From a virus (taxonomy: Duplodnaviria; Caudoviricetes): a stretch of DNA of 64,000 bases. Under the pieces are notes generated by a model. It searched no databases. It saw only the letters and a list, made by a program, of their open reading frames with translations, and was not told the DNA's origin. Below are positions 10,271-60,100 of the stretch, piece after piece. Positions within the stretch are counted from its first letter, which is position 1. Every line of letters starts with the position of its first letter. A program made the translations under genes and the position numbers. Location: the IMG/VR virus record IMGVR_UViG_3300021255_000040, positions 59,181-123,180 of that record; one strand, given 5' to 3'.

Positions 10271-10319
10271 TTGTCTATTTCATTGAAAATTACTATCTTT
10301 GTAATTGAAATGAAGATAG
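10271..10319 (+). promoter_or_regulatory. Intron-internal promoter (TTG-N20-TATCTTTG) and hairpin covering the GIY-YIG start codon
   Basis: -7 box at 10294-10301; stems ttcatt/aatgaa and aattac/gtaatt cover the ATG at 10310. Confidence 0.65.
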
Positions 10320-31712: not shown

Positions 31713-31720
31713 TACCTTTG
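31713..31720 (+). promoter_or_regulatory. TAnnTTTG promoter box for the RNAP gene
   Basis: TACCTTTG 28 nt before the ATG at 31749. Confidence 0.7.
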
Positions 31721-31748: not shown

Positions 31749-34700
31749 ATGGTATGTGTAGATAAAAAAAGCCCTGAGTTCCTGAGGTTAGCCAGACGCA
31801 TGAATCTGGATGCTAACATACTGGAGCAAATCATACATAAATACTACAGAGAGTCTGGTCAGGAGGAGCTTTTCCCCACTGATGTGTATGTCAATGCTCA
31901 GTTAGGGAGAACTCAGTACGAGGAGGCTATGCCCACTGTCAGACAGTTTTGGGAAAATGCTTACAGTCAGCCTAAGACTTTCAGTTCTGAAGGTGAATAC
32001 AAACGAGCTTGGGTTCAGGCTATCAATTATTTTCCTAAGGAAGCTATTGTCAATTACAAAGATACTAATGGCAACTTTATTCTGGCAGTAAGGAGACCTG
32101 TGGAAAAGCTTGAGAAAAACTCCAAGGGAATGATGATTGTGACTGATGCAGAAGGTAACAGACTGCCTATGCTGTCACATCAAGAAGCCAGGGATTATGC
32201 ATTAATTACCAGTCAATTGTTGCCTGATTCAGAAAAAAGTAGTACTTTTGCAGCTGATATGCGAAGTGTAACTGAAAACCAGGACTACATCTCAGATTCT
32301 CTGGATGCAGCAATGAAGACTGGTAGGTGGAATGACCAAGCTATAAAGGATTTAGAGAAACTAATTAAAAAGATACAAGATGGAGAAGTTGATTTTAAGC
32401 GAACAGTGGGAGAAAGATTCTCCTTCACGAAAGGCATCTCTGAAGCACATGCAGCAGCATCCCTTATCACAAGAGGATCTTATGGAGCAAGTCAAGCAAA
32501 ATCAGGAGCTGCGAAAGAAATATATGACAGAGATGCAGCCCAAGGCAGGCAGCAAGAAAGGCTGATAGAAGCATGGGCAAAGGCAGCTGACCTTTGGGTT
32601 AATGACTATACAGATGCACAAGGCCATAAAGCTAATAGTCTTGAGGGCTTAATGCACAGTCAATGGCAGTATATGGATCAGGCATCTGAAGCTGAAGTAT
32701 TCAGATATGATGATACTCAAGTCATTAAGTCAATTAGTCTGTCACACTCCAATGACAATGTGGCTAAGCTACTTGACAGAATAGCTCTTTTCAATCAACT
32801 ATTCCCTGAGACAGCTCTTACCATTCAAGGATTTGGCAGAGACAAGCTGGGACACTTCAGGGTTATTGCCACTCAGAATCTTATTAATGGTAAGGAGCTG
32901 ACTGATGAACAGCTCAAGAAGTTCCATGATAAGTATAAGCTTAAGGAGCAGGGTGCTTGGTTTGTCACTCCTGATGGTACAGCTCTTATCAATGACTTGA
33001 CCAATGCCAATGTCATGATTGATGAGCAGGGTAACTATTATGTCATTGATGCTGATGTAGTCTTCAACACTCCTGAAATGGGTGGTAAGGTTCTTTTTGA
33101 TAATTCCTTTGAGTTTCATCAGAAAGAAAGACCTGCCAGAAAGGAACGTCAGGTGATTGGCCCACAGCCATTTACATTTAATGATGGTACTGTAGTTACT
33201 GTTCCCTTCAAGCCCAATGAGCAACAGGCAGAGGCTCTAAATGCCATGAATGACTTCCTCAACTCTGATGAGACTACCATGACTCTATCAGGTTATGCTG
33301 GTACTGGTAAGACCTCGCTCATGGAGATTATTGCTCAGAAGGCAAAGAGACAGCATAAACCCATCATGTTCAGTGCTACCACCAACAAGGCTGCTGCTGT
33401 CTTGAAAGCAAGAGTCTCTAAGGCAGGTTTTGATGCTCAGACACTGAACAAGGTATTTGGTATTAATGTAGAAGTTGATTCTTCCAAGGCTTATAATGCA
33501 AGGAACCTGGTTACTGCTTTGAGAGATGCTGACATCATGCCTGGCACTACAGTAGTCATTGATGAAGCCTCTATGATTAATGAGGAGAACTATAGAATCC
33601 TCAACAGAATAGCCCGTGAGAATGGTCTGAAGATTATCTATGTTGGTGATAAGGCACAGCTTGCTCCAGTCAATGAGACTCAGGTCTCTAAGGTATTTAG
33701 AAACTCTGAAGGCAGGGTTGTAGAGCTTACTCAGGTAGAGCGTACTGATGACAATGCTATCCTTAAGGAAGCTACTAACATCCGCAATGGCCTGCCTCTG
33801 TCTGGTGAATCTAGTTTCAATGAAAGAGGTGAAGGTGTAGGGTATCTTACTCCTAAAAGCCGTGATGAGATTGGTAAAGTTATCAGGCACTACATCCAAG
33901 GACTCAAGGATAATCCTAACTTCTTCAGGATTCTGGCTTATACTAATAAAAAGGTAACAGAGTACAATGACTTTGTGAGAACTCTCCTTGGTTACACAGA
34001 CCCTATTCCTCATGTTGGTGAACCTCTGACAGGTTACAATAACTGGGGTTATGACTGGAGAACTAAGAGTTATAGATTCATTAACTCTGAGAGCTATAAA
34101 GTTACAAGAGTTGGCAAACCTGCACAGTCTAAAATTTCTGTGAATGGTCAGGAGTTTACTATGACCTATGTTCCTGTTACTATGGAGAACTCTCTTGGTG
34201 AGAGTGACACCTTTAATTATATGGATATTAAGGGTAATCAGGAGAATAGACAAGCAGCTCTTCAACTGGCTACTCAGAAGAAAACTCTGTGGGAGCAATA
34301 TAGACGTGCTGTTGGTAGAGAGGCTAAAAGTAACATCTTATCCCAGATTAACTCTATTGACCAGTTCCTCTTTGTCAATGACAATATTGAAGACCCAACT
34401 ACTCATAATCTGCTCCAGCCTAAGACTGTAGATTTTGGTTATGCCCTAACTATCCATAAGTCCCAGGGGTCTACTTTCACTCATGTTCTCATGGATGATA
34501 TTGATGTGGCAAAAGCAGGCAACACATTAAACAATGCTGCCAATGCTATGTCTGTAGTTGACTTGGGTGATGCAGGAATGGTTGCTGATGCTTCTATGGA
34601 AATGAGGGGCTCTGAGGATGTTGACTTAGGTGATTTGTCCTCAGTTCCTGCTGAAGAGCCATCTAGTAGTAATCCTAATATTGCTAATGTTCGTCAGCAG

Positions 34701-37700
34701 TTGGAATATGTAGGTGTATCAAGGGCTACCAATACTGTCACTATTATATCTAATAATGTAAAGACAGAAGGCAGTCCTTTGACTCCTCAGAACTTGATTA
34801 GTAAAGAGGACAGTAATCCTTCTAACAATGAGGTTCAAGGAGAGAATATTGCCTCCAATGGCTCAGAGTTTGCCAAGAAACTTACCAATCCAGGCAATAA
34901 CTTGCAGGTAGAGTACAAAGGCAAGACCTTTAGGAATGCAGAACATGCCTATCAGACATGGAAGTCTGGAGAATTTGATGAAGTAGCTTATAATAGTACA
35001 GCTTTCAAGTCTAAAGGTAGTAAACCTGCCAACAAACAGACTAACTATCAGACTATGGTAGATATACTCAAGGCTAAACTCCAGCAACATCCAGAACTGG
35101 TTGAAGGAATTACACAGAGAGGCGGAGAGGAATACCTTAAAGCCTCTACCCATAAGGTTACTGGTGACAAGTATTGGGAATCTACAGGCCAAAATAAGTT
35201 CATCGAGGCTCTTACTGAAGCTTACAATGCAATAAACCAAGGAGATAACCGTTCTAATGAAAAGACCAATCTGATTGCAGCAACTATTGGTCCATATTTC
35301 AATACTTCCTATGAGGATTATATGGCTATGGTTCCTGAGAAACAAAAGGAGATGAGAGAAGCCTTTGCTAAAGCTGCTCATGAAGTAGCAAAAGCATTGG
35401 GCATTCCTCTTGATATGAAGCAGGCTTCTTTCAATATTGGAGGCTATGAGTTTGAAGATGGAAGTTCTGTTATAGAACCGAGTTTTACTTTTAGATTTGG
35501 AAAAGATGCTACTCCCGAACAGGTAAGAATGTTTGCAGCTCTCATGGGAGATTTAGGATATGAACAACAAGAAGCTGTAGTTACTAGTTGGGATGTAGCA
35601 AATGAAGAAGAAAGGGATGGTGATAGACACTTTATTGAATTCAAAGAAGAGGAACTGCCACTACTTAAGCAGTTTGGAATTAAAAATTTTACCTTTGATA
35701 AAACAAGAGGTGTTTTGTCTGTCCTAAGTTTTGATACCAAAGATGTAGAGAATTTTTATAAATTAGTAGAAACTATAAAACAAAAAGAGAATGGACTTGA
35801 AGAAACTCAAAGAAGAAACCCCAGAAGAGCGTCGTTTAAGACTTTCTATGATGAGAAAGAAGGAAGAAGAGCTTTGTACGAAGCTTGGAGTGTCAATGCC
35901 AAAGACAGAAGTGCCGAAGAAGGAAGACCCTCTGGAAGTGACAATCTCGTTCAAGAAGCACTAGAAAAGCTTCAAAATAGAGAGTTACCCATTGATAGAG
36001 AAACTCCTACTGAACAACCACAGAAAGTGTCTCTACCCAGCTATGAATATTTCATGGACAGGTATGAAGATACTACTGTGGATGCTGTTTGGAAGATTCC
36101 ATTGCTTCAGCAGTTAGATTCACAACTGACTACTGAACTGACTCCTGAAGAGAATAATGAGATTCTTGACAGAATGACAAGGATTCTTGAGGCAAAGTCT
36201 CAGGAGGATTTGTTGGACTTGCAAACTGAAGAACCTAAAGAAAAGAAAACAGTGGAACAAAACCTCACTGAGTTTGAGAAGATGACCCAACAGATTAATA
36301 ACCTGTTGGACAGTAACATCATCTCTGCTTCTGAGATTAGACATGTGGCTGAACTGGTGGTTAACTCCATCAGTGACACCATTACTATTCTACAGAAGGA
36401 AGATGGTGCTGCTGAGAAGTTCTTCCCTAACATTGAGACCAAGATTGACTTTAAGACAGCTTCTCGTAAGGATATAGTTGAAGCCATTGGTATTAATAAC
36501 CTCATTCACAGAGCCAAGCAGCAGTTTGACCCTGAACAGAATGACTATGAGGACTTTGATACCATTGACCAGGCTGACCTTATTATAGACAACTGGGATG
36601 CCATTATGACTCTTGCTGCTGATACCTTTGCTATGACTGAGGGATTTGGTATCATGAGAAATTATGACAATGGTGGCTTCAACACTACTCAGGCTTCTAC
36701 CATTGACTATGATAACTTCAATGATTATAGCAACGACTCAGATGCTATGGCTGAATCAGAGAAGGATGAACAGGAGCATTGGCAGGTAGAGCAGAGAACT
36801 ATTGATGTGCTGAACTCTATGTCACAACTGGTAAGACTTGCCCTGCATGACTGCTACCAGATGGACAAGGATGGCAATAAGGTAATGAGTAAATGGGGCA
36901 TTGCTGAAAGAGTAAATCCACGTCAGGCAGTAAACAGCATTCTCAGATGGACTCAAGGAGCATTGTCTCTTGAGGATATGATTCAAAGGATGCAGAACAA
37001 AGCCACTCAGAATCCTTGGCTCAATCAGTTAGTAGAGAGGCTCTCAGACAAGAGTGGTCAAGAAGCTGACTTCCAGAGCCAGTTCTTTGGGGTATTCTCT
37101 AAGCACTTCCAGCCATACTCTGTAGTTCTGCTTGAGGATGGTAAGTATCACAGCATTCCTGTGAACTCTCATCCTGCACTCTCTGAGGCTATGCAGACTA
37201 TCACTACTCAGTTTAAGATTGGTGAGCATCCTTTGTTTACTGACAAGGGCATCAATGTGAAACTACTGGGTACTGAAAGAACTACATTCCCTGAAGCAGA
37301 TTTCAATTTGCATAAGGCTCTGAGTAATCTCCAGACCATCCAAGACAGGCTGAATCATGGTGAGCAATTCTCTGACAAGATAGCCAAGGATGCAACAGCT
37401 GAGATTATGGGTGTTTGCAGAGTACTGGGTTATCCTGTTACTGAGGAAATGCTTTCAGAGGCTATCAATGAGGAGAAGCTGAAGTACATGACAGACAAGC
37501 TTTACCACATGGTGAAGTCTTTGGATGCAGCACTGGAAGCTCAGAGAAGAGAGCCTAACAAGCAGTATAATCCATTTGCATTTGGTACTGACAATAGCAT
37601 TGGTGGTACTTTGAGAAACTTCCTCACTCCTATTACAGATACTCTGGAGGATACTGCTGTAAGTGCTTTCTATGACTCAGGCAAGATGTATCAGAGTTAT

Positions 37701-40700
37701 GTAACTCCAAGCTTTATGACCAAGCTGATGAATAAGTTCCGTTTGGAAGGTCAGGAGTTTGAGGACTTCATCATGCAGGAGTATGGCAACTCTGAATGGT
37801 TTAAGTCAGGAAAGAACCAATGGGATATATCAAGAGGTTGGAGAAATGTATGGTTACAGCTCCTTGCTACTGATGAGAATGCCCGTAAGGTGTTTGACCA
37901 TAAGGTAGAGCTGAACTTCAACAAGCACAATTACATGAGGAATATGAGTGATGCAGAGTACACCTTGTCTCTTATCACAGAGTATTTCGCAGAAACTGCT
38001 CAGAAGGGTCAGTCTATGGTTCCTGCTTGGTTCAGAATACCTATCATGTCTAACAAGCCCAGCTCTGAGTTCATTAAGTTCTATTCCTACAGAGGTGCTA
38101 ACTATAAGGATGAAATTATCTTTGGTTTGCATCAGATGTTTAACCAAGAACTCTCCAGAATTCAGACTGTTAACATGAGGAATCACTCTAAGGGTGATAG
38201 TGAGTTCATTGCTAACTTTGATACCAATGGTAGAAAGTTCAACTTCCTGCCTTTCCTCAATCAGTTCTTGGATAAGGCTAATCATTCTGAACTGACAACA
38301 CTGCTCAAGAAGAAAGTAGAAGGTCTGACTGCCTTGACTGCTGAAGAAGAGGCAAGACTCTCTACTCTGGTGGATCAGGCTATCAGGCAGGATATGGACA
38401 TAAGAGTCAATAAGATTCTGAATGAATGGGAGAACAGTGGTATCCTTGAAGCTGCTCAGAACATTGACGGCATTGGTACTGAGGAAGCTCAGATTAGGGC
38501 TAACCTAGAAAACTTCCTGTGGAATGATAACTTTGCCTCAAAGAACATTCTCCAACTGACTGTCACTGACATTGCTTTTTATAAAGATGCAGAAGACCTC
38601 CAGAAGCGTCTGGCTCAGATTCATGCTCCTGGTATCAGAGGTAATGTGGCTGCTACAGACTATGAAGGCAACAGAGTATCTGATGGTAAGTACAGAACTA
38701 TCCTGATTCAAGGCTTGCAGAAGTTCAAGACTGACTTAATAGCTAATCTTACAGAGGTATTTGACCGTAAGATAGCTGCTGCTCCTGATAGTCAGAAAGC
38801 CCAGTGGAGAGCATTGAAGGAAGACTTGGTTGGTGAGAATGGCAGATATACCAAGATTGATGTTACTGATGGTCAGGGTTATTCCTCTCCATCATCTTAT
38901 AGGAAAAAGGCATTCATCTTTGGTAGATGGTCACGTCAGGCAGAGGATATTTATCAGAAACTGCTGAAGGGTGATTATAACTACAGTGACTTAAAGGTTG
39001 CTTTCCAGCCTTTGAAACCATTTGTATATACTCATCTTCAGAAGGATATGGGTGTGGACAATGCTCCAATCCATTCAATGCCCGTACCTTTCCAAGCCAA
39101 GAACTCTGAGTATCTGCTCATCATGGCTGATGCATTACTACAGGGAGAGAAGACTTCCAAGCCTAATCTCCTGAGAGCTATCTATAGAGTGATGGAGGAC
39201 AGTGAGAGACTTGCTCCTACTAAGGGTATTGACACTGTTCAGTTTGATTCTGCCATTAAGTCAGGTCTTCAGGCTCCTATTGACCTCAATCCATTTGTAG
39301 ATATGGTTGGTGGCGAAGAAGCTGCCTTTGAGTATATGAAGGGCTTGATTTACAAGTTGGATGACCAAGGCAATCCTTCTGTTGAATACAACACTGATAC
39401 TTATGTTCATGAAGGTGAATATGAGGATTACTGTTTGCAGCAGGAGGTTCCTGAGCACTTCAAGGATCACTCTCAGGCTCATGGTTCTCAGATAAGAATG
39501 ATTATTCCTTCTGACCTTGATTTCTACAAGAATCCTAATGGTGACAGAACTGCTGAAGACAATCAAGTCTATTATGAGTGGACTGAGCCTGATGGTACCA
39601 AGAAGAAACTGAAGGCTGATGAGTTCCGCAAGGAGTATGAAAAGACTATTGCTGACAATATCAGGGAGAGTATTGATCTACTTTCTCAGGAACTGCATAT
39701 CAATAGCAATGACAAGAAAGAAAGGAACATTGCTCTGTCTAAGATTCTTCAAAGGGAAATCCTCTCATCTCCCAGATATGGTATAGACCTTATTCAGGCT
39801 TGTTCTATTGATAAGGAGACTGGTGAGTTCAGAATTCCTAAGGGAGACCCCATTCAGGCTAAGAGGATTGAGCAGCTTATCAACTCTATCATCAAGAACC
39901 GTGTGAATAAGCAGAAGATTGCTGGTGGCCCTATTGTTCAGGTAACTAACTTTGGTACTTCCCGTCAGCTGCACATCAGGTTCAATGATAAGAATGGTGG
40001 ATTGCTGATGACTCGTGAGGAGTATGAACAGAATCCTCAGAAGAAGAAGATGTCTCAGACTGATAAATTTAATGCCCGCTATGGTAAGAAAACTGCTTCA
40101 GGCAATATGACCTATGAGGAATATGTCAAGCAGAATCAGGCAGGTATTGCTTACTTTGAGGTATTTGTTCCTATCTGGTCTAATGAGCTGTTTGAGAAGT
40201 TTGCCAATCCTGATGGTTCTATCAATGTAGAGGCAATAGAGGCTACAGACCCTGAGCTCTTGAAGATGATTTCATACAGAATTCCTACTGAGGACAAGTA
40301 CTCTTGTGCTCCTATGAAGGTTGTAGGATTCATGCCAAGAGAAGCTGGTGATGCCATCATGTTCCCCTATGAATTGACTGAGATTGATGACTCTGACTTT
40401 GATGTGGATAAGAGATACACCATGCGTAAGAATATTCCCATCAAGAGAAAGGCAAAGCACATCATTCGCAAGGAACTCTTTGACATTGTGTCTGACAGCT
40501 ATCAGAAGCAATATAATAAGGAGTTGCCTGCCAACATTGCCAGTGAGATAGAGATATTCTTGGATTCTCCTGACACTATGAAGGACAAGAACAGCTTCAA
40601 TCAGTGGATGCACAGTCAGTATCAGAGAATAGCCTATACCACAGAGGCTCCTACCTCAGGCAGAACATACAGAGACAACAAGATTGTAGATATGACTTGG

Positions 40701-42935
40701 GCAGTACTGACCAATGAGATGACTGCTGACAAGATTCTCAATCCTGGTGGATTTGATGTGTTCAAAAGGAATGGTTATATGGTTGCTGCCTACAAGAATC
40801 CTGCCAACAACTATTCATGGGAACAGCTCCAGCAAATGTCTATTGATGAACTGAACAAATTGAGTTACACTGAGAAAGACCTTACATGGTTGGATACTCA
40901 GATTCAGTTCTATAAGCAGAATGCTGCTGCTGCCTCTCTGATTGGTGTGTTTGCTGTAAACAAGGTAGCTCATGCTACTCTAGAGAGCAACAATTATTAT
41001 GTAGCAGTTGATGAGGTTTGTGACCCACGTCCATTCATTATTGCTGATACTGAGTTTGGTGGTAGAATGAAGGTTGACCCAACTTATGATAGGGAAGGTA
41101 ATCTCATTGGTAAGACTATTGGTGCTGGTGTATCTGCTTCAGCTGATGCTGCCAAGACACCTGTGTTAAATCTGATGAACATCAACATGACTACTGCTGG
41201 CATCTTCAATACCCTGCTCAGACTGGGTATGGCTCCTAATGATGCTTCTCTGTTTATGTCTCAGGATGTGATAGAGAGAGTACTCAATGAGTTTAATCGT
41301 GAGAACCTAACTAACTATAAGCCACTCTCCACTATCATTGAGGAACATCTGTCAGAGCTGCGTGAGAAGCATAACATTTCTGATGATTCCAACATCAACT
41401 CAGAAGCCTTGTCAAGAGAGGAAATGGTAGATGGCTTGTTGCCTGTCAATCCTATGAATCAAGATAACCATGAGGTCATTGACTACAAGGTTCTGCTTGC
41501 TTTCCAGAAAGTAAGGTCATTGGTAGATGCTATGAGAAAACCTACATTTGCTACAAGATTCAACTCTGTCTCTTCAGCTGTAGGCCCACTCATCATTGAT
41601 AACCTTATTATTGAGCATAAAATGGAGCAGTTCACTGATGCAGCTACTGAGGATGGTACTCACTTCTATGATTCAGAAGGTACTCCTGTAGATATTGATG
41701 ACATCTTCTATGACCATCCTATTCTGAAAGAGTTCTCTCGCACTGTTGATATTGCCAAGTCCATGTTCTATGACATGCCTGCTGGTAGTAGAGGATTCAG
41801 AAACCTGTTGGCTACTCTGCCTGAGGGATTAATAGATAAGGTATATAATGACAAGAAGCTCTTGGATAACCTGAGCAACTTCTATCAGTCATACCTGCTC
41901 ATTGCATCCCGTATGGTGAATCCTGCCAACCTGAAGAACTACATTGATGGATTCCCTAAGTACTTCAATGAACAGAAGTTCAAGGAGAAGTACCATGACA
42001 ATGCACTGATTCAGGCTATTAGAATGAATGTAGCCAAAAGAACAGGCAGACCATTCCTCTCTATTAACATCACTGGTATTGATGAAGCTCAAAAGGAAGT
42101 ATATCGCAGTGCATGGATTGACCTACATAAGGATAATCCAGAATTATCTAAGAGGCTCTTCGAATACTGTTTCTTCCGTGCTGGCATAGGATTCAGTCCT
42201 AAGACATTCATGTCACTGGTTCCTGCTTATGTCAAGGAGAGACTCTCTACAAACTTAGATAATAATACTCAAGCTACTTATGTGGATACTTACAGAATGT
42301 TCCCAACAGTTAATCCTGAGGTTGTTATAGACCAATGGGTAAGAAACAATTGGGATAACAACAAGCTGGTTCCTAAGAAGGGTGGTGAAGGTACTCACTA
42401 TGCTGTAGATTTGAAGAGAGGTACTCTGATAGCAAGAGACCCAAAGGATATGGCTGACTTAAAGGGTAACAAGTACATTAAGACCCGTCATAATGGTCAG
42501 ACATACCTATGGAAACAACTCATTGCTGATAAGACTGCTGTCAACTATGTGATGGTGAAACCTCTAGGTAACAATGGTGAATATATGGAGATGAGTCTTG
42601 CAGATATTACCAAACCTCTGAGTGAAACCAAAGAAACCATCGAGGATATGCAGGAGTCTGAACTCCAAGCTACCAGTCCTGCTGAAGCTGATGCAGCTCA
42701 GGAGTCAAATGCTGATACAGTAACTGATGGTGAGAAGGCAAAGCAAACAGCAGAGTTGGCAGAACTCTTGATGAAACAGAATCCTAAGTTTAACAAGACT
42801 CAGGCTCTGAATCAGATAGAGAGGATGAAGGAGAAACCTAACATGTATGCAGGGTTCTTGGTGAATGTGTTTAAGCAAAAAGGTCTGAACCTGACAAAGG
42901 AGGAGGCCATTAAAGAATTCAAAAAAATGTGTTAA
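31749..42935 (+). CDS. Giant virion DNA-dependent RNA polymerase (crAss type) with N-terminal kinase, SF1B helicase, NADAR and possible SAM-lyase-like domains
   Basis: Catalytic DFDVD (about 40395-40409), YRIPTE and TDGQGY; helicase GYAGTGKT, IDEASM, VGDKAQL and TIHKSQGST; kinase NDLTNANV and VIDAD; NADAR AEHAYQ and DKYW..TGQN. Confidence 0.9.
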   Translation: MVCVDKKSPEFLRLARRMNLDANILEQIIHKYYRESGQEELFPTDVYVNAQLGRTQYEEAMPTVRQFWENAYSQPKTFSSEGEYKRAWVQAINYFPKEAIVNYKDTNGNFILAVRRPVEKLEKNSKGMMIVTDAEGNRLPMLSHQEARDYALITSQLLPDSEKSSTFAADMRSVTENQDYISDSLDAAMKTGRWNDQAIKDLEKLIKKIQDGEVDFKRTVGERFSFTKGISEAHAAASLITRGSYGASQAKSGAAKEIYDRDAAQGRQQERLIEAWAKAADLWVNDYTDAQGHKANSLEGLMHSQWQYMDQASEAEVFRYDDTQVIKSISLSHSNDNVAKLLDRIALFNQLFPETALTIQGFGRDKLGHFRVIATQNLINGKELTDEQLKKFHDKYKLKEQGAWFVTPDGTALINDLTNANVMIDEQGNYYVIDADVVFNTPEMGGKVLFDNSFEFHQKERPARKERQVIGPQPFTFNDGTVVTVPFKPNEQQAEALNAMNDFLNSDETTMTLSGYAGTGKTSLMEIIAQKAKRQHKPIMFSATTNKAAAVLKARVSKAGFDAQTLNKVFGINVEVDSSKAYNARNLVTALRDADIMPGTTVVIDEASMINEENYRILNRIARENGLKIIYVGDKAQLAPVNETQVSKVFRNSEGRVVELTQVERTDDNAILKEATNIRNGLPLSGESSFNERGEGVGYLTPKSRDEIGKVIRHYIQGLKDNPNFFRILAYTNKKVTEYNDFVRTLLGYTDPIPHVGEPLTGYNNWGYDWRTKSYRFINSESYKVTRVGKPAQSKISVNGQEFTMTYVPVTMENSLGESDTFNYMDIKGNQENRQAALQLATQKKTLWEQYRRAVGREAKSNILSQINSIDQFLFVNDNIEDPTTHNLLQPKTVDFGYALTIHKSQGSTFTHVLMDDIDVAKAGNTLNNAANAMSVVDLGDAGMVADASMEMRGSEDVDLGDLSSVPAEEPSSSNPNIANVRQQLEYVGVSRATNTVTIISNNVKTEGSPLTPQNLISKEDSNPSNNEVQGENIASNGSEFAKKLTNPGNNLQVEYKGKTFRNAEHAYQTWKSGEFDEVAYNSTAFKSKGSKPANKQTNYQTMVDILKAKLQQHPELVEGITQRGGEEYLKASTHKVTGDKYWESTGQNKFIEALTEAYNAINQGDNRSNEKTNLIAATIGPYFNTSYEDYMAMVPEKQKEMREAFAKAAHEVAKALGIPLDMKQASFNIGGYEFEDGSSVIEPSFTFRFGKDATPEQVRMFAALMGDLGYEQQEAVVTSWDVANEEERDGDRHFIEFKEEELPLLKQFGIKNFTFDKTRGVLSVLSFDTKDVENFYKLVETIKQKENGLEETQRRNPRRASFKTFYDEKEGRRALYEAWSVNAKDRSAEEGRPSGSDNLVQEALEKLQNRELPIDRETPTEQPQKVSLPSYEYFMDRYEDTTVDAVWKIPLLQQLDSQLTTELTPEENNEILDRMTRILEAKSQEDLLDLQTEEPKEKKTVEQNLTEFEKMTQQINNLLDSNIISASEIRHVAELVVNSISDTITILQKEDGAAEKFFPNIETKIDFKTASRKDIVEAIGINNLIHRAKQQFDPEQNDYEDFDTIDQADLIIDNWDAIMTLAADTFAMTEGFGIMRNYDNGGFNTTQASTIDYDNFNDYSNDSDAMAESEKDEQEHWQVEQRTIDVLNSMSQLVRLALHDCYQMDKDGNKVMSKWGIAERVNPRQAVNSILRWTQGALSLEDMIQRMQNKATQNPWLNQLVERLSDKSGQEADFQSQFFGVFSKHFQPYSVVLLEDGKYHSIPVNSHPALSEAMQTITTQFKIGEHPLFTDKGINVKLLGTERTTFPEADFNLHKALSNLQTIQDRLNHGEQFSDKIAKDATAEIMGVCRVLGYPVTEEMLSEAINEEKLKYMTDKLYHMVKSLDAALEAQRREPNKQYNPFAFGTDNSIGGTLRNFLTPITDTLEDTAVSAFYDSGKMYQSYVTPSFMTKLMNKFRLEGQEFEDFIMQEYGNSEWFKSGKNQWDISRGWRNVWLQLLATDENARKVFDHKVELNFNKHNYMRNMSDAEYTLSLITEYFAETAQKGQSMVPAWFRIPIMSNKPSSEFIKFYSYRGANYKDEIIFGLHQMFNQELSRIQTVNMRNHSKGDSEFIANFDTNGRKFNFLPFLNQFLDKANHSELTTLLKKKVEGLTALTAEEEARLSTLVDQAIRQDMDIRVNKILNEWENSGILEAAQNIDGIGTEEAQIRANLENFLWNDNFASKNILQLTVTDIAFYKDAEDLQKRLAQIHAPGIRGNVAATDYEGNRVSDGKYRTILIQGLQKFKTDLIANLTEVFDRKIAAAPDSQKAQWRALKEDLVGENGRYTKIDVTDGQGYSSPSSYRKKAFIFGRWSRQAEDIYQKLLKGDYNYSDLKVAFQPLKPFVYTHLQKDMGVDNAPIHSMPVPFQAKNSEYLLIMADALLQGEKTSKPNLLRAIYRVMEDSERLAPTKGIDTVQFDSAIKSGLQAPIDLNPFVDMVGGEEAAFEYMKGLIYKLDDQGNPSVEYNTDTYVHEGEYEDYCLQQEVPEHFKDHSQAHGSQIRMIIPSDLDFYKNPNGDRTAEDNQVYYEWTEPDGTKKKLKADEFRKEYEKTIADNIRESIDLLSQELHINSNDKKERNIALSKILQREILSSPRYGIDLIQACSIDKETGEFRIPKGDPIQAKRIEQLINSIIKNRVNKQKIAGGPIVQVTNFGTSRQLHIRFNDKNGGLLMTREEYEQNPQKKKMSQTDKFNARYGKKTASGNMTYEEYVKQNQAGIAYFEVFVPIWSNELFEKFANPDGSINVEAIEATDPELLKMISYRIPTEDKYSCAPMKVVGFMPREAGDAIMFPYELTEIDDSDFDVDKRYTMRKNIPIKRKAKHIIRKELFDIVSDSYQKQYNKELPANIASEIEIFLDSPDTMKDKNSFNQWMHSQYQRIAYTTEAPTSGRTYRDNKIVDMTWAVLTNEMTADKILNPGGFDVFKRNGYMVAAYKNPANNYSWEQLQQMSIDELNKLSYTEKDLTWLDTQIQFYKQNAAAASLIGVFAVNKVAHATLESNNYYVAVDEVCDPRPFIIADTEFGGRMKVDPTYDREGNLIGKTIGAGVSASADAAKTPVLNLMNINMTTAGIFNTLLRLGMAPNDASLFMSQDVIERVLNEFNRENLTNYKPLSTIIEEHLSELREKHNISDDSNINSEALSREEMVDGLLPVNPMNQDNHEVIDYKVLLAFQKVRSLVDAMRKPTFATRFNSVSSAVGPLIIDNLIIEHKMEQFTDAATEDGTHFYDSEGTPVDIDDIFYDHPILKEFSRTVDIAKSMFYDMPAGSRGFRNLLATLPEGLIDKVYNDKKLLDNLSNFYQSYLLIASRMVNPANLKNYIDGFPKYFNEQKFKEKYHDNALIQAIRMNVAKRTGRPFLSINITGIDEAQKEVYRSAWIDLHKDNPELSKRLFEYCFFRAGIGFSPKTFMSLVPAYVKERLSTNLDNNTQATYVDTYRMFPTVNPEVVIDQWVRNNWDNNKLVPKKGGEGTHYAVDLKRGTLIARDPKDMADLKGNKYIKTRHNGQTYLWKQLIADKTAVNYVMVKPLGNNGEYMEMSLADITKPLSETKETIEDMQESELQATSPAEADAAQESNADTVTDGEKAKQTAELAELLMKQNPKFNKTQALNQIERMKEKPNMYAGFLVNVFKQKGLNLTKEEAIKEFKKMC
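32220..32250 (+). promoter_or_regulatory. Promoter inside the RNAP coding sequence (TTG-N20-TACTTTTG followed by CA)
   Basis: Same elements and 20-nt spacing as the promoters at 10271-10301 and 48899-48929. Confidence 0.6.
32380..32565 (+). CDS. Nested +1-frame ORF (61 aa) just before the kinase domain; candidate inhibitor
   Basis: A-rich leader (ctaattaaaaagatacaag-ATG), upstream internal promoter and E/K/Q-rich helical composition unlike shadow ORFs. Confidence 0.55.
   Translation: MEKLILSEQWEKDSPSRKASLKHMQQHPLSQEDLMEQVKQNQELRKKYMTEMQPKAGSKKG
35791..35964 (+). CDS. Nested +1-frame ORF (57 aa, MDLKKLKEETPEERRLRLSMMRKKEEELCTKLGVSMPKTEVPKKEDPLEVTISFKKH)
   Basis: A-rich leader (aactataaaacaaaaagaga-ATG), TACCTTTG at 35690-35697 and charged helical composition; below the ORF-track cut-off. 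Confidence 0.55.
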   Translation: MDLKKLKEETPEERRLRLSMMRKKEEELCTKLGVSMPKTEVPKKEDPLEVTISFKKH

Positions 42936-42938
42936 GAT

Positions 42939-45900
42939 ATGGCTAAATCATGTGTTTTATATCCAGACGCTCCTAATGGACAGCCTAGTAAGATGTATAA
43001 GGACTTGCTGGAAAAGAATAAGTTAGGCAGGCCTCTTGTGAATATGCTCTATGCTTCATACATTGCTTCTAATGCAGCTGATGCAATGGATCAGGCAGGT
43101 TATCAGAGAAACTCTCAAGGTGAGCACAATGCTGCTGATGTGATGAAATTCTTAGATGTCTATACAATGCTCAATGAAATGGCAACTCTCTCTTCGGAAG
43201 AGTTGTCATGGGGCATTGTGGATAATAATGGTAATAGAATTGATTTCACTGATGGTAAACAGGCCCTTGAGAAAGCTGATGCCTTTAATGATGCTCATAC
43301 TGGATTGACTGCTACAGTTATTCAGCATGGTAACATCTATAACATTATCACTGCTGAAAAAAATTCCAGGACTCATACTTATGGCATGGATGTCAAGGAG
43401 AAGCTAAAAGTATGGGATGTAGAGAAACAAGCATTTGCTGCTGTAGGCATTGATATTGACAACATGCCTCAGGAGCTAAAAGGTATATTCACCCCGATGA
43501 ATACAGGATTGGTGTCTTACCTGCAAGGTCTTCAGAGATTAGCAATGGGCAACCTCTACAAGAAAGATGCTTTACTGTTGTTTAATATGGATCCAAACTC
43601 TGCACAGGTTAGAAGACTTGTGCAGAACTTTGGTTCTATTGATATAGCTGCTGAAGCTATCAATAACATTAATCATGGTATTGGCAACTACACTACTGCA
43701 CAGAAACTTTTATTAAAGAGGGCTGTAGACCACTGTAAGCAGTATCAAGGCATTGACCTGAATGCTCTGAAGGCTCAGGTAGACCAGATGTCTCAACAGG
43801 TTATTCAGAGTAGTCCAGATGAAGCTATCAAACAGACCCTACATCAGCTGAACAAGAAGTATAAGATTGACATCAATGAGATTCATCGCATTGGAAATAA
43901 AATTAATACTCTTTCTGAAGCTGCTACCGATGCTGCTGTAACTATCCAGAGACAAATCAGACAACTGGAAAAGGAGCAAGGCAATAATGTAGAAGGCAAG
44001 AGGCTGGAGGGTGTCTTGAATCAGTTGATGCGAGAGCTGGCTAATAAGAAGTATTATTCTGGTGTATTAAACTTCTTGAGTGAAGCACAGACTCAGATTG
44101 CCGAGATTGACAATATGCTCAACAACATTCCTCAGACTGGTACTGAACTGGAGAAAGCCTTTGGTACTGCCAAGATTCTTCAGGACATCAAATCTTTGAG
44201 AGAACAGTATTATACCTTAGTATCTGCCTTAGCTGATGAGCATCTAACTATTGACGAATCAATCAATCAGTCTGATATTGATAACATCCGTCAGTCTGCC
44301 AAAGCCTTGAAAGAATACTTTGACAAGAAAGAAAGAGTACTGGATAATCTGACAGAGCAAACTATGATTAGTCTGATGACTCAGATTGTAGGTGACGCAG
44401 CCCCCAATGGCCAAGCAATGATAAATGTAATCAGAATGGCTGCTGCTGACAGTTCTCTATCAGACTATTTGTATAGTGTTGGCAGGGCTTCTAATCCTAT
44501 TATAGCTGCTATGGGTAGTATCATCAGGAATGCTCAGGACTCAAGAGATGGTGTAATGAATAACTTCTCACTGAGAATCCGTAGGGCTACTGATAAACTC
44601 TACAAGTCTGGCAGTGACTCTTCCTTTATGTATGAGGATGATGGTCATATCATCAGTGATATTGACTGGAGTCTCTACAAAGCTGCAAGGTCTGCTCATA
44701 TCAAAGATTTATATAGACAAGGCTTAAGAGGCTTCGATCTGAAGCAGGCTATTGAAGATTGGGAAGATGTGAATACTGAGGATAGGGTAGTTGATAATAC
44801 CAATGGTAGAACTGAGAGAGTACCTGATGCTTCATACAGGAAACCCTTCCCTGCATTGACTCAAGCTCAACAGGAATACTATGATGAGATGATGCAGCTC
44901 AAAGGTGAGATTGGTTCTTTTCTTCCTGCTTATGCTCAACATCAATACTTGCCTCCACAGCTTCGTAGAAACACAATGGATGCTCTGGGGCAGGCAAAGA
45001 ATGTTAAAGATGTAGCCAAAGCTCTTAGAAACAAGTTTGAGAATATCTGGAAAATCCGTGAGGATGATGAGAACTATAATATGAATGGTATCATTGATGG
45101 TGATGAGTATGCCATTACCAATGGTGCTTTTGATAACACTCCACTCCGTCAGATTCCTATCTTCTTTGTCAACAAGGTAGAACAAGAAGAACTATTAAAG
45201 AACTTCTCCACAGGTATTGCAGCTCTTGCAGGTACTGCCATTAACTATGATGCTATGAGTAATGTAGCTCAGGTGGTAGAGTTTATTGGTGACTTTACTA
45301 AAGGACAGGTTGCCAGAGACAAAGACCCTAAGGCTGACATCATTGAGAATAAGCAGATAAGAATCTTTAAAGACCTGTTCAAATGGGGAAAGAATACTAA
45401 TACTGCTGGTATCATTGATGGCTTTATCTCACAGCACATCTATGGTCAGAGGCTGGATCCAGAACAACCTGGTTATAAGTGGGCTAAACTGGTTCAAAAT
45501 ATCATTGGCTATACTTCATTCAAGGGACTATCTACAAACTTAAAAGGTGCGTTTAGTAACTACTTAGTGGGTGAATTTCAGATGATGATTGAAGCAGGTG
45601 CTGGAGAGTTCTATGGTTTCCAAGATTACCTATGGGCACACTCTAAGCTCTTTGGTAACTCTGGTGTAGGAGGTGAAATGGCAGAGCTTCTAACCAATAA
45701 TATGAATAGCAAGGGAACACTCTTCAGAGAAATGTTTGACCCAATTAATGAGAACTTCTCAGACAAGAGTCATACTAAATACTATAAGAGTATGTTCCGT
45801 CAATTAATATCCCATGACTGTTCTTTCATTGGTTACAGCTCTGGTGAATATCTTATCCATTATGTTAATATGTATTCTATTCTCCATAACCAAAAGGTAT

Positions 45901-57100: not shown

Positions 57101-60100
57101 CATCAATGACCTTCTCCAGATTAGTCATAATGTCATCCCTGTTATTAGCATTCTCTACGACCTGCTCAACATTCCTCATGACATTATCCTTCCACTGCTG
57201 ACTTTCCTCTGCATTATCAATTACAGCCTTGACATCAGCAACAGTATTACCCCATTCCTTAGCATCTTGCACTTGTTGCTGATACTGAGGCAACATACTA
57301 TCATTCTCTATAATATCTAATAAGGTGGGACTCATCTTCCTCAAAGCCCTGAAGACAAACTCATTCTTCTGGTCTTGACTGACATCATCATGTCCCTTCA
57401 TACCTTCCTCAAACTGATTAATGAAATCTGCCACAGTCTCAGCATTCCTTTGGTTAATCAGCTTATAGGCAGTATCAGCTTCCTGTGCTCTCTGTGCTTC
57501 CAATGCTACAGCAGCAGCCTCAGGATTCTGCGCCATTCTGCTATAAGCATCCTCATTAGCTGCAATCCTCTGTGACAGTCTAGCAATATCCTGTATCTTA
57601 CTCAGAGCATCACCATCTCTCATCAATAGTCTCTGTTCCAACTTAGAGATTTCCCTTTGTTGTGCATCACTGTAGAGTTGCCTGTTCTCAGGATTCAACA
57701 TCCTAGCTCTTGTCACAGGGTCAAGACCAAATATCTCATCAGCAGTCAATACCTTTTCCTGATACTTACCACTCTCATCTTGAGCCTGATTGTTCAGAGC
57801 CTCAATGACTTTATTCTTCTTCTCAGTAGTCCTAGTACCAAGGTCTCTCAGATAAGCCTCCTGCTGAACAGCATCATCGTATTTAGCCTGAGCTTCTTCC
57901 TGAGCTTTCTGAGTATTGTATTTCTCCTCACTGGTCTTAGCAGCTTTCCTATTGGCAACCGCTTCATCCAGTTTATCCTTCAAGTCCTGAGTCTTTTGCT
58001 TCTGCTCTTCCAGCTCTTTCTGAAGTTCATCCTGTTGCTTATCATATACCTTAATAAGAGCTTCAGCACTCTTCCTGCCACCAACAGAAGGAATTAGATT
58101 CTCCTGACTAACATCACCTGTAATGTCAGCAGTATCATCCAGCTCATCCTGCATCTTCTGCACTCTTTCTCTCCAATGAGGATTCAGAGCCTGATTCATC
58201 TTCATCTTAGCCCTTACAGCAGGATCAATTCTCTTGCCAAGGTTTCTTTCTATCTTCTGAACTTCCTGCTCTGCCTTGTCATAAGCCTCTGAAGCCTCTT
58301 GCAGTTTCTGGGCATTCTGACTAATCTGATAAAGAGCCAACTGGTTATTAGCCTCACTTTGCACTACACCAGGATTATTGGCATAATACTGAGCCAGCAT
58401 ATTATTAACCTCCTCCTCGGTGAAAGCATTTTCACCTTCCATCTGCATATTAGCAGCTTTGGCAATAAAGTCCTTAGTATTCTGAATCACACTACTCAGA
58501 GTTGTGGGGTCATTCTGATTCTGTGCCAGCTGGTTTAAGGCATTTACTGCATTAATAGCCTTCACAAACCTCATGGTCTTCTGTTCTCCCACAGTCTCTG
58601 CATTATCCAGAGCAATATCAGAAGTCACCAAGTCCTCAATTACCTTGAAATCATCATAGTCATCCAACAGGTTATTCACATAGTCTGCATGATTCTGAAG
58701 GTCTCTTTCATTCTGCTTAGCTCCATAGTAAGTATTCAGCACACCATTCTGAATGAAATAGTTAAACCTGTCTCTCCAGTTCTCTCTCAGACTGACATCC
58801 TCATACTGAACATTACCCTGTTCATCCCTCATCACACTGCCATCTTCATTTCTCTTGGCTCTTTGCTGGAAGTTATTCTTGTAAGCCTGTCTGCCTTCCT
58901 TGGTAAAGTAGTGAACAATGTTGGTCATATTGGGAGTAAAGCTCAAGATACTACCTAAACCACCAACAGTAGCAGCATTCCAAGTAGTCTCCTGACCCAA
59001 AGAGTTATTCAGACCTTTCCAATAAGAGTACAGACCATCAGCAAAACCATAGGTATCTGCCATAGACTCTCCATTCTCAAAGGCATTAAGGTATCTGTCA
59101 AAGCTGTCAGCATTGATTCTCTCAGCAGCATCCACCATCATATCATCAGTGCCATTAGTCCAAGCACCTCCCCATATCTGGCTACCTGCTATCTTACCCA
59201 TCTGCTTCCACTTCTGTCCATTGGTTAGGAACTTACTTGTCTCAGTAGCCAATCTCTGCCTACCTGCTGGAGTAGTAACTTCTCTCAGTCCCTGTAATCC
59301 TGCTGCTACTTTATTCTTCAAACCAGTAGGGTTAGTATAGAACCATTTCCTGAAACCGACAGTATTCACCAATCCATACTTAATAGCCTCAGGTAAGAAA
59401 GTCATTGTAGCAGTCTCCCCTGCTGAATTGATAGCTTCATTCTGCAATGCTGCATACTCATCAGAACCCTTCAAGTCAGTCAGTTTCTTCTGAACCATTT
59501 CACCCAGTACAGCTTGCTGTGCTCTAGCTCTCAGCATCTCATCCAGTTTAGCTTCATCAACCAACTGTCCCTGCTCACCCATCTGAGCCATATACTCAGC
59601 CTTCATACTTGCAGCTCTGGCATCAATCAAAGCATCTACTTGAGCCTTATATTGCTCATCATTCTGATACTGGTCATAGATTTCCTGTTTACTCCTATTA
59701 AGAGCTGTCTCTTCAGCATTGGCTAAGTTCTGAGCCAGTGTTTCTTGGAAGGCTCCACGCTCATAAGCATAAGCAATACCTCCTGCACCTGTCAGTCCTT
59801 GAATCAAAGAACCTGCACCTGTCTGAGCAGTAAGATGTCTGCCAGTCCAGTTCATTGCCTGACCAAGGCCTCTACCCAATCTGCCTACCTTACTGGCAGT
59901 ACTCAGTGTCTTACCAAGCAGTCCCATACCAAAGGGAAGCAACTGAGCAGCACCATCAGCCAGACCAAAGCTCATCATCTTGAAGGATTCATACATTAAG
60001 TCAGAATCATCATTGGGATTATAAGCTACCTTGTAAGGACTGCTTCCCAGTTTCTCATATTGCTTCTGCTCATCATTGTCCAGCGTACCAAACTGTTCTG

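Follow-up and report, generated by a model that had tools for sequence, protein, structure and literature searches.

Does the giant RNA polymerase (RNAP) gene of a crAss-like phage carry a second gene, read in the +1 frame, at the point where its kinase domain begins? An earlier note raised this question for a 64,000-nucleotide (nt) stretch of DNA, here called the window, which covers positions 59,181 to 123,180 of the IMG/VR virus record IMGVR_UViG_3300021255_000040. The record is complete, about 123 kb long and has direct terminal repeats, and the sequencing runs that contain the window sequence are bovine gut metagenomes. Within the RNAP coding sequence the note had pointed to a promoter-like motif, an A-rich leader, a +1 open reading frame (ORF) and an unusual composition of both frames, and all of these features were found in place (Table 1). 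Comparison with homologues indicated that the +1 ORF is very probably a real overlapping coding gene. The best explanation as a whole, a real +1 gene whose product would be a partner of the kinase, is on balance probable. The narrower idea that this partner would serve as an antidote is tentative.

As seen in the window alone, the peptide encoded by the ORF, P0002, stood out in its composition. The summed fraction of glutamate, lysine and glutamine (E+K+Q) was 0.41, compared with 0.04-0.18 in nearly every one of the 25 other +1 ORFs that reach 45 amino acids (aa), and the fraction of leucine, methionine, valine and arginine (L+M+V+R) was 0.23, the lowest of that set. The contrast that the earlier note drew between an E/K/Q-rich peptide and L/M/V/R-rich shadow ORFs was thus borne out. 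The same was true of the shift in the host frame, in which glycine, alanine and arginine made up 37% of the residues over the overlap compared with 17% in the whole gene, and CpG reached 1.61 per 100 nt compared with 0.48 (94th percentile). The 20 nt 5' of the +1 ATG were 60% A, which is the 99th percentile among 20-nt windows in the RNAP gene. The overlap was also poor in T (17.7% compared with 27% for the gene), and for that reason alone fewer stop codons are expected there. The length of the ORF was considered as evidence and dropped: 12 ATG-started +1 ORFs of at least 61 aa were found within the 51.5 kb of coding sequence in the window, and this one is only the 12th longest +1 ORF. Since length and motif features lie within the reach of chance, the case rests on the comparison of homologues and not on this window.

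Most homologous DNA was taken from contigs encoding homologues and from genome contigs, and a few loci came from IMG/VR and metagenome scans. For one set of crAss-type homologues the search started from the first 480 aa of the giant protein. For a second set only the kinase domain 3' of the ORF was used as bait, so that the selection was blind to the ORF. An ATG-started +1 ORF was present at the same place in 31 of 31 homologous loci, comprising 29 crAss-type and two Saprospiraceae chromosomal loci. Throughout the 29 crAss-type loci, the kinase identity of which ranged from 98% down to about 28%, the ORF was 56-73 aa long and occupied the same alignment columns. A single +1 stop was found between columns 48 and 126 in these loci (L015, column 123), and both flanks were rich in stops. 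The ORF always ended just 5' of the main-frame motif E-A-W-A-K-A, where the Pfam kinase model begins. The start codon differed by lineage (column 49, or columns 41-43), with the ATG always 1-6 codons after the preceding stop. In one lineage group the start had shifted six codons upstream along with the preceding stop, which is the behaviour that would be expected of a maintained ORF. Upstream of the ATG, the mean A fraction over 20 nt was 0.54 in 18 divergent homologues compared with 0.32 in the gene body, and position -3 was an A in 16 of the 18.

The ORF was likewise carried by a polyvalent protein from IMG/VR outside the crAss type (L039). The crAss-like lineage group with the shifted start, found on Prevotella-associated contigs (L022-L034), encodes the kinase in a stand-alone gene (about 300 aa) that has a TAnnTTTG promoter of its own, and there too the small ORF is nested inside. 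At one contig end of this lineage (L031:1-60), the sequence upstream of the nested ATG was replaced by the promoter-like TAATTTTG, 11 nt before the ATG, and the kinase frame had stops upstream and no ATG. Either the small gene heads its transcript in this variant, or the contig end was misassembled. Dynamic programming was used to compute, from the residues of each sequence and its codon usage, how likely the +1 frame was to be open. This probability was 0.002-0.65 per sequence, typically about 0.1, and the product over 15 lineages with saturated flanking synonymous sites was 10^-14.5, a value that is indicative only, as the lineages are not fully independent.

The pattern of substitutions pointed in the same direction. 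At columns with identical main-frame residues, codon identity was 0.74 in the overlap and 0.43 downstream, with 0.39 expected from codon usage (overlap versus downstream by column, Mann-Whitney p = 1.7e-20). In a sliding profile, the synonymous constraint rose about 8-10 codons before the ATG and returned to the baseline right after the stop. Nucleotide diversity at main-frame codon positions 1, 2 and 3 was 0.42, 0.30 and 0.61 downstream, and 0.50, 0.40 and 0.37 in the core of the ORF. In the core, variation thus peaked at main-frame position 1, where the +1 frame has its wobble position. Furthermore, the +1 residues M, S, E and Q were invariant and H-P nearly so, while the main-frame residues at these sites varied (for example A/S/T/P and R/G).

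A gene-wide control was carried out with ten full-length homologues over 6291 alignment columns. The longest stretch that was open in the +1 frame in all ten covered aa 210-267 (57 columns), and the next longest covered 22 columns. The top ten windows of synonymous identity all fell inside the ORF, with a value of 0.82 compared with a mean of 0.49 and a standard deviation of 0.06. The ORF was the sole such outlier across the 3728 codons, and the other long +1 ORFs of the RNAP gene were not conserved.

Table 1. Features in and around the dual-coded segment of the RNAP gene (positions in the window)
Feature	Coordinates	Strand	Description	Basis
RNAP gene	31749..42935	+	Polyvalent virion RNAP, crAss-like, 3728 aa; largest ORF of the window	ORF list, translation, Pfam, PHROGs
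Promoter-like motif, Bacteroidota type	32220..32250	+	TTG, N20, TACTTTTG; inside the RNAP coding sequence	Pattern match
A-rich translation-initiation region of the +1 ORF	32355..32379	+		A content, homologue comparison
Main-frame segment aa 211-272	32379..32564	+	N-terminal extension of the kinase module; stretch read in two frames	
Overprinted +1-frame gene (very probable)	32380..32565	+	61 codons and TGA (32563-32565); protein P0002	
Kinase-PolyVal (PF18762)	32550..33062	+	aa 268-438	Pfam, E 4.6e-21, 75.9 bits against a cut-off of 27

An independent replicate was obtained from Bacteroidota chromosomes. We searched 401 Bacteroidota genomes with the Pfam kinase model PF18762 alone, and 17 genomes had matches. 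A +1 ORF of 47-60 aa was found in about 19 of 20 distinct loci, starting a few nt from the kinase ATG and ending within about 20 nt of the start of the Pfam domain. Codon identity was 0.88 in the overlap compared with 0.42, and diversity by codon position was 0.45, 0.28 and 0.27 in the overlap compared with 0.39, 0.29 and 0.56. The signal equalled or exceeded that of the crAss-type loci, and here the +1 frame seems to be the main coding frame. The proposal of the earlier note, an overprinted gene that is real and belongs with the kinase module, was thus upheld by the presence of the ORF in 31 of 31 loci, by the reduced synonymous variation and by replication in the set selected through Pfam.

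Several degraded copies were observed. In six of them, on Bacteroidota chromosomes (L049, L050, L051, L056, L066 and L067), stops or frameshifts lay within the kinase domain and the nested ORF upstream was intact. Two others, in a Prevotella metagenome-assembled genome (L044:1485-1679) and on a Saprospiraceae chromosome beside a serine recombinase (L045:1419-1799), were truncated remnants without a kinase, in which only the dual-coded 5' segment was left and both frames were still open. Database clusters of the Prevotella type had the first approximately 45 residues in common and then diverged, as if cut at one junction. In a sample of Firmicutes, one weak profile match was found (G149, E 5.7e-5), and no kinase was detected besides that of a mis-binned crAss-like contig.

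The small protein was modelled with AlphaFold2 using 23 homologues. The model was a two-helix hairpin (helices 5-26 and 31-52) with a predicted local distance difference test (pLDDT) score of 81, about 90 over residues 11-50, followed by a basic, disordered C-terminal tail. The core motif was M-x-x-H-P-[YL]-S-x-E, of which the conserved H-P-[YL]-S-x-E part covers the turn and the helix 2 N-cap. The invariant Ser was considered as a phosphosite and no claim is made, as the N-cap (S-x-x-E) of helix 2 fits equally well. Comparison of the peptide model with the PDB by Foldseek gave no match, and no family for the small protein was found in Pfam, PHROGs or NCBIfam.

When 1.84 billion representative proteins were searched with a profile of the peptides, 274 clusters matched, 43 with E <=1e-10. 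As these are clusters of called proteins, the ORF is often predicted by gene callers; none of the ten clusters looked up had a name beyond "hypothetical protein". Some of the matches were in-frame fusions with HAD_SAK_2 (three clusters, one with 28 members), HTH_3 or a HicB-like domain, the last two each in a single database relative only, and others were tandem duplications or repeats of the small domain. The fusions and repeats argue for an independently folding protein domain.

The domain into which the main frame runs is a clear member of the Kinase-PolyVal family (PF18762). The columns of the catalytic-loop D/N and the metal-binding D (D, N and D-x-D) were invariant across 20 homologues of the kinase, and the kinase model resembled the CK2alpha and NleH2 kinases in a Foldseek search. 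The main frame was uninterrupted through the overlap and contained conserved residues there, including invariant R, A and Q. The overlap segment was less conserved than the kinase core (identity 0.34 compared with 0.48), and in a model of the kinase module its pLDDT was a patchy 50-86 compared with 85-94 for the core. Some crAss-like RNAP polyproteins contained two Kinase-PolyVal domains (L017, and contig C98 of genome G001 with loci L069 and L070). In L017 only one nested small ORF was detected.

What would the product of such a gene do? In every locus examined, the small ORF was nested in the kinase gene and hence co-inherited with it in one transcription unit. This linkage was seen for kinases fused into crAss-like RNAP polyproteins or into a different polyvalent protein of a phage, and for those encoded on their own in Bacteroidota chromosomes. 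Recombination cannot separate the pair, and the most likely role of the small protein is therefore to act on the kinase or together with it. Translation would start independently at the ATG of the ORF, after an A-rich leader of the Bacteroidota type. The template would be the mRNA that also encodes the kinase, and transcripts from an internal promoter at 32220-32250 may add to it. The product, of about 60 aa and with the predicted hairpin and basic tail, would then act either as an antidote or inhibitor in the producing cell, or as a regulatory subunit. The most economical account of how the arrangement arose would be a two-gene module, with the small gene first and the kinase second, whose kinase frame later grew upstream through the small gene. 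Such an extension would let the module fuse in frame into polyvalent proteins with the small gene kept.

The earlier note had gone further and proposed a cognate inhibitor that silences the kinase. This model is plausible, in that the linkage, an effector that is injected and the few antitoxin-like fusions would all fit it. In its widest form, Kinase-PolyVal effectors delivered with the DNA of phages and conjugative elements would carry their antidote or regulatory subunit as an obligatorily nested +1 gene. The two-gene module would thereby be compressed and could be spliced in frame into giant polyvalent proteins, such as this virion RNAP, and the small protein would continue to be produced on its own and would remain in the producing cell. 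We regard this general scheme as speculative.

Some points weigh against a gene for a partner of the kinase. Besides the partial dependence of the lineages in the open-frame calculation, AlphaFold2 readily gives helices for K/E-rich sequences, and the hairpin model is weak support for that reason. A copy of the small gene with a clearly closed kinase frame was sought and none was found among the loci examined. The HAD_SAK_2 fusions would suit an adaptor or regulatory domain at least as well as an antidote that stays behind. The last point leads to the alternative that survives best, namely that the gene is real and translated and its product is independent of the kinase, for example a peptide that binds nucleic acid or counters defence, or an adaptor common to several effector domains of polyvalent proteins. 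The linkage would then be a historical accident of overprinting. The basic tail would suit such a product, and the occurrence of the same domain in fusions with HAD_SAK_2, HTH_3 and a HicB-like domain and in tandem repeats indicates that it is not restricted to kinases. However, in every locus with DNA that could be examined, the ORF overlapped the 5' extension of a Kinase-PolyVal domain or a truncated remnant of one, and such universal co-inheritance in phages and chromosomal elements is most simply read as joint function. We therefore consider a product independent of the kinase to be a serious possibility, but not a probable one.

The internal promoter fared less well than the gene. The earlier note had read TTG-N20-TACTTTTG-CA at 32220-32252, where the RNAP frame reads EKSSTFAA, as a promoter of the +1 ORF. 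The intergenic promoters of the window have the Bacteroidota form TTG-N20-TAnnTTTG a few nt before an ATG, and the same TTG-N20 geometry was found at the intergenic sites 10271 and 48899, 8 and 17 nt 5' of ATG starts. The internal motif lies 130 nt 5' of the +1 ATG, and its -33 element is GTTG and not TTTG. In the window, TAnnTTTG occurred at chance frequency (57 sites compared with 55.4 expected), and the full motif occurred four times compared with 1.17 expected.

All eight homologues with the N-terminal domain of the window had the -7 box TAnnTTTG(CA) at the corresponding site, and in these the T-A-n-n-T-T-T-G-C-A letters were kept while the encoded residues changed (S-T, S-K, R-N, G-N and V-T), which hints at selection on the DNA. 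The -33 TTG at N20 was found in only three of the eight (the window, L006 and L007). No such motif was found within 400 nt in L012-L016, which have other N-termini, or in L017 or L021. L012-L016 keep the ORF, so that a dedicated promoter is not required for it. Moreover, the -7 box of the RNAP gene itself, TACCTTTG at 31713-31720, lies 28 nt 5' of the RNAP ATG and only 530 nt upstream of the internal motif, so that the +1 ORF would be on the RNAP mRNA in any case. The claim was thus partly supported, and a functional internal promoter is possible, although we lean against it. Contigs from bovine-gut RNA libraries covered both sides of the putative start at low depth, without ends or strand, and may be DNA carry-over. 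A main-frame ATG (Met171, 32259-32261) was observed 8 nt after the internal -7 box, the spacing seen at the real promoter at 10271. Apart from the window, only its 97% relative has this ATG; in L007 the codon is ATA.

The conserved -7 box also bears on the view that the constraint acts on the nucleic acid, through an internal promoter or other regulatory stretch, a folded mRNA or an element of translation control at the start of the kinase module, such as a regulatory ORF that would matter by being translated and not through its product. The onset of synonymous constraint about 10 codons before the ATG would agree with this, as would the upstream -7 box that is conserved in one lineage group. 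In stand-alone kinases the +1 ATG lies a few nt from the kinase ATG, which would suit competition between start sites. However, a constraint of this kind needs neither an open frame with start and stop in 31 of 31 loci nor turnover of start codons, and it would not move the wobble position to that of the +1 frame or fix +1 residues over changing main-frame residues. The promoter motif is, moreover, 130 nt away from the constrained stretch. We consider this explanation improbable. A chance shadow ORF, in which a T-poor, purine-rich main-frame stretch happens to be free of +1 stops, could draw on the 12 +1 ORFs of at least 61 aa in the window, the 17.7% T compared with 27% and an open-frame probability of about 0.1 per sequence given the residues, but it is effectively refuted by a frame open in all homologues (combined probability near 10^-14) and by a synonymous constraint that is confined to this ORF as the unique outlier of a gene whose other long +1 ORFs are not conserved.

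The RNAP gene in which the ORF is nested encodes, in order, an N-terminal domain, Kinase-PolyVal, a Dda/RecD-like helicase, a weak NADAR match and the crAss-type RNAP. Kinase-PolyVal, the helicase and the NADAR match all lie within the N-terminal 1400 aa (Pfam and PHROGs). Direct reading of the translation showed the motif DFDVD in the C-terminal part, which is typical of virion RNA polymerases of the crAss type. Searches of annotated phage and plasmid collections, at both the DNA and the protein level, gave no match. Within the helicase part of the gene an antisense ORF of 336 aa was observed (33288-34298, minus strand), and long shadow ORFs thus do occur in the RNAP gene. Another +1 ORF of the gene, at 35791-35964 (57 aa), was also E/K/Q-rich (0.37). 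It sits in a linker that could not be aligned to any divergent homologue and lies outside the conserved open stretches of the gene. Close to the 3' end of the RNAP gene, at about 42650-42680 (aa 3636-3642), a second and weaker peak of synonymous codon identity was observed (0.64-0.69, few pairs), possibly due to signals of the following gene, the start of which is at 42939.

Known systems offer partial parallels. In phage lambda, the spanin gene Rz1 is embedded in the +1 frame of Rz. As in that pair, the small ORF described here is fully contained in a larger phage gene, is read in the +1 frame and has its own start. The Rz and Rz1 products function as a pair and the arrangement recurs in many phages, and here a joint function would be of the same kind. 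The host gene differs, being an effector kinase module that is often part of a polyprotein of about 3700 aa. Unlike Rz1, P0002 lacks signal and lipobox features, and a soluble helical hairpin is predicted for it.

In Bacillus subtilis, comS encodes a regulatory peptide of about 46 aa, out of frame within srfA and on the same mRNA. The likeness lies in a small peptide encoded out of frame inside a giant multidomain gene. comS is, however, restricted to its lineage and its function is unrelated to the host enzyme, whereas the +1 ORF was kept wherever the kinase family was sampled.

Type II toxin-antitoxin systems can have a kinase as the toxin, as in HipA/HipB, and hok/mok has overlapping frames. 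Common to these and the present locus is a small partner gene that is co-inherited and co-transcribed with a potentially harmful enzyme, and a few relatives of the small domain are fused to antitoxin-like HTH_3 and HicB-like domains. In contrast to type II systems, the partner is nested in another frame and not adjacent, and P0002 has no DNA-binding domain (no Pfam domain was found and the model is a plain helical hairpin), a domain that is common but not universal in antidotes. To our knowledge, Kinase-PolyVal is not an established toxin of such a system. A 2017 study by Iyer and colleagues reportedly described the Kinase-PolyVal family of polyvalent proteins. Its Pfam model begins only at the end of the +1 ORF, and the dual-coded 5' extension, like the nested gene, was not found in Pfam, PHROGs or NCBIfam. 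Text searches of the literature likewise gave no account of this extension, or of a gene nested within crAss-like RNAP or Kinase-PolyVal genes. The one paper returned only mentions the family.

The finding concerns a small gene that was missed by gene callers and domain databases and that belongs to a widespread, unannotated family of small proteins with 274 clusters. Its signature is among the clearest comparative cases of dual coding that one could ask of a double-stranded DNA phage, and the dual coding spans a family of effector kinases in crAss-like phages, other phages and chromosomal elements of Bacteroidota. Annotation pipelines for crAss-like phages should search for the nested gene, and recoding or "synonymous" engineering of the overlap segment would not be neutral. 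The locus also suggests an evolutionary route by which a two-gene module may become a single-ORF polyvalent protein, through reading across the upstream gene in another frame. Finally, the strict linkage provides a testable entry to the targets and control of the Kinase-PolyVal enzyme, and suggests how producing cells may tolerate effector enzymes that are made to be injected.

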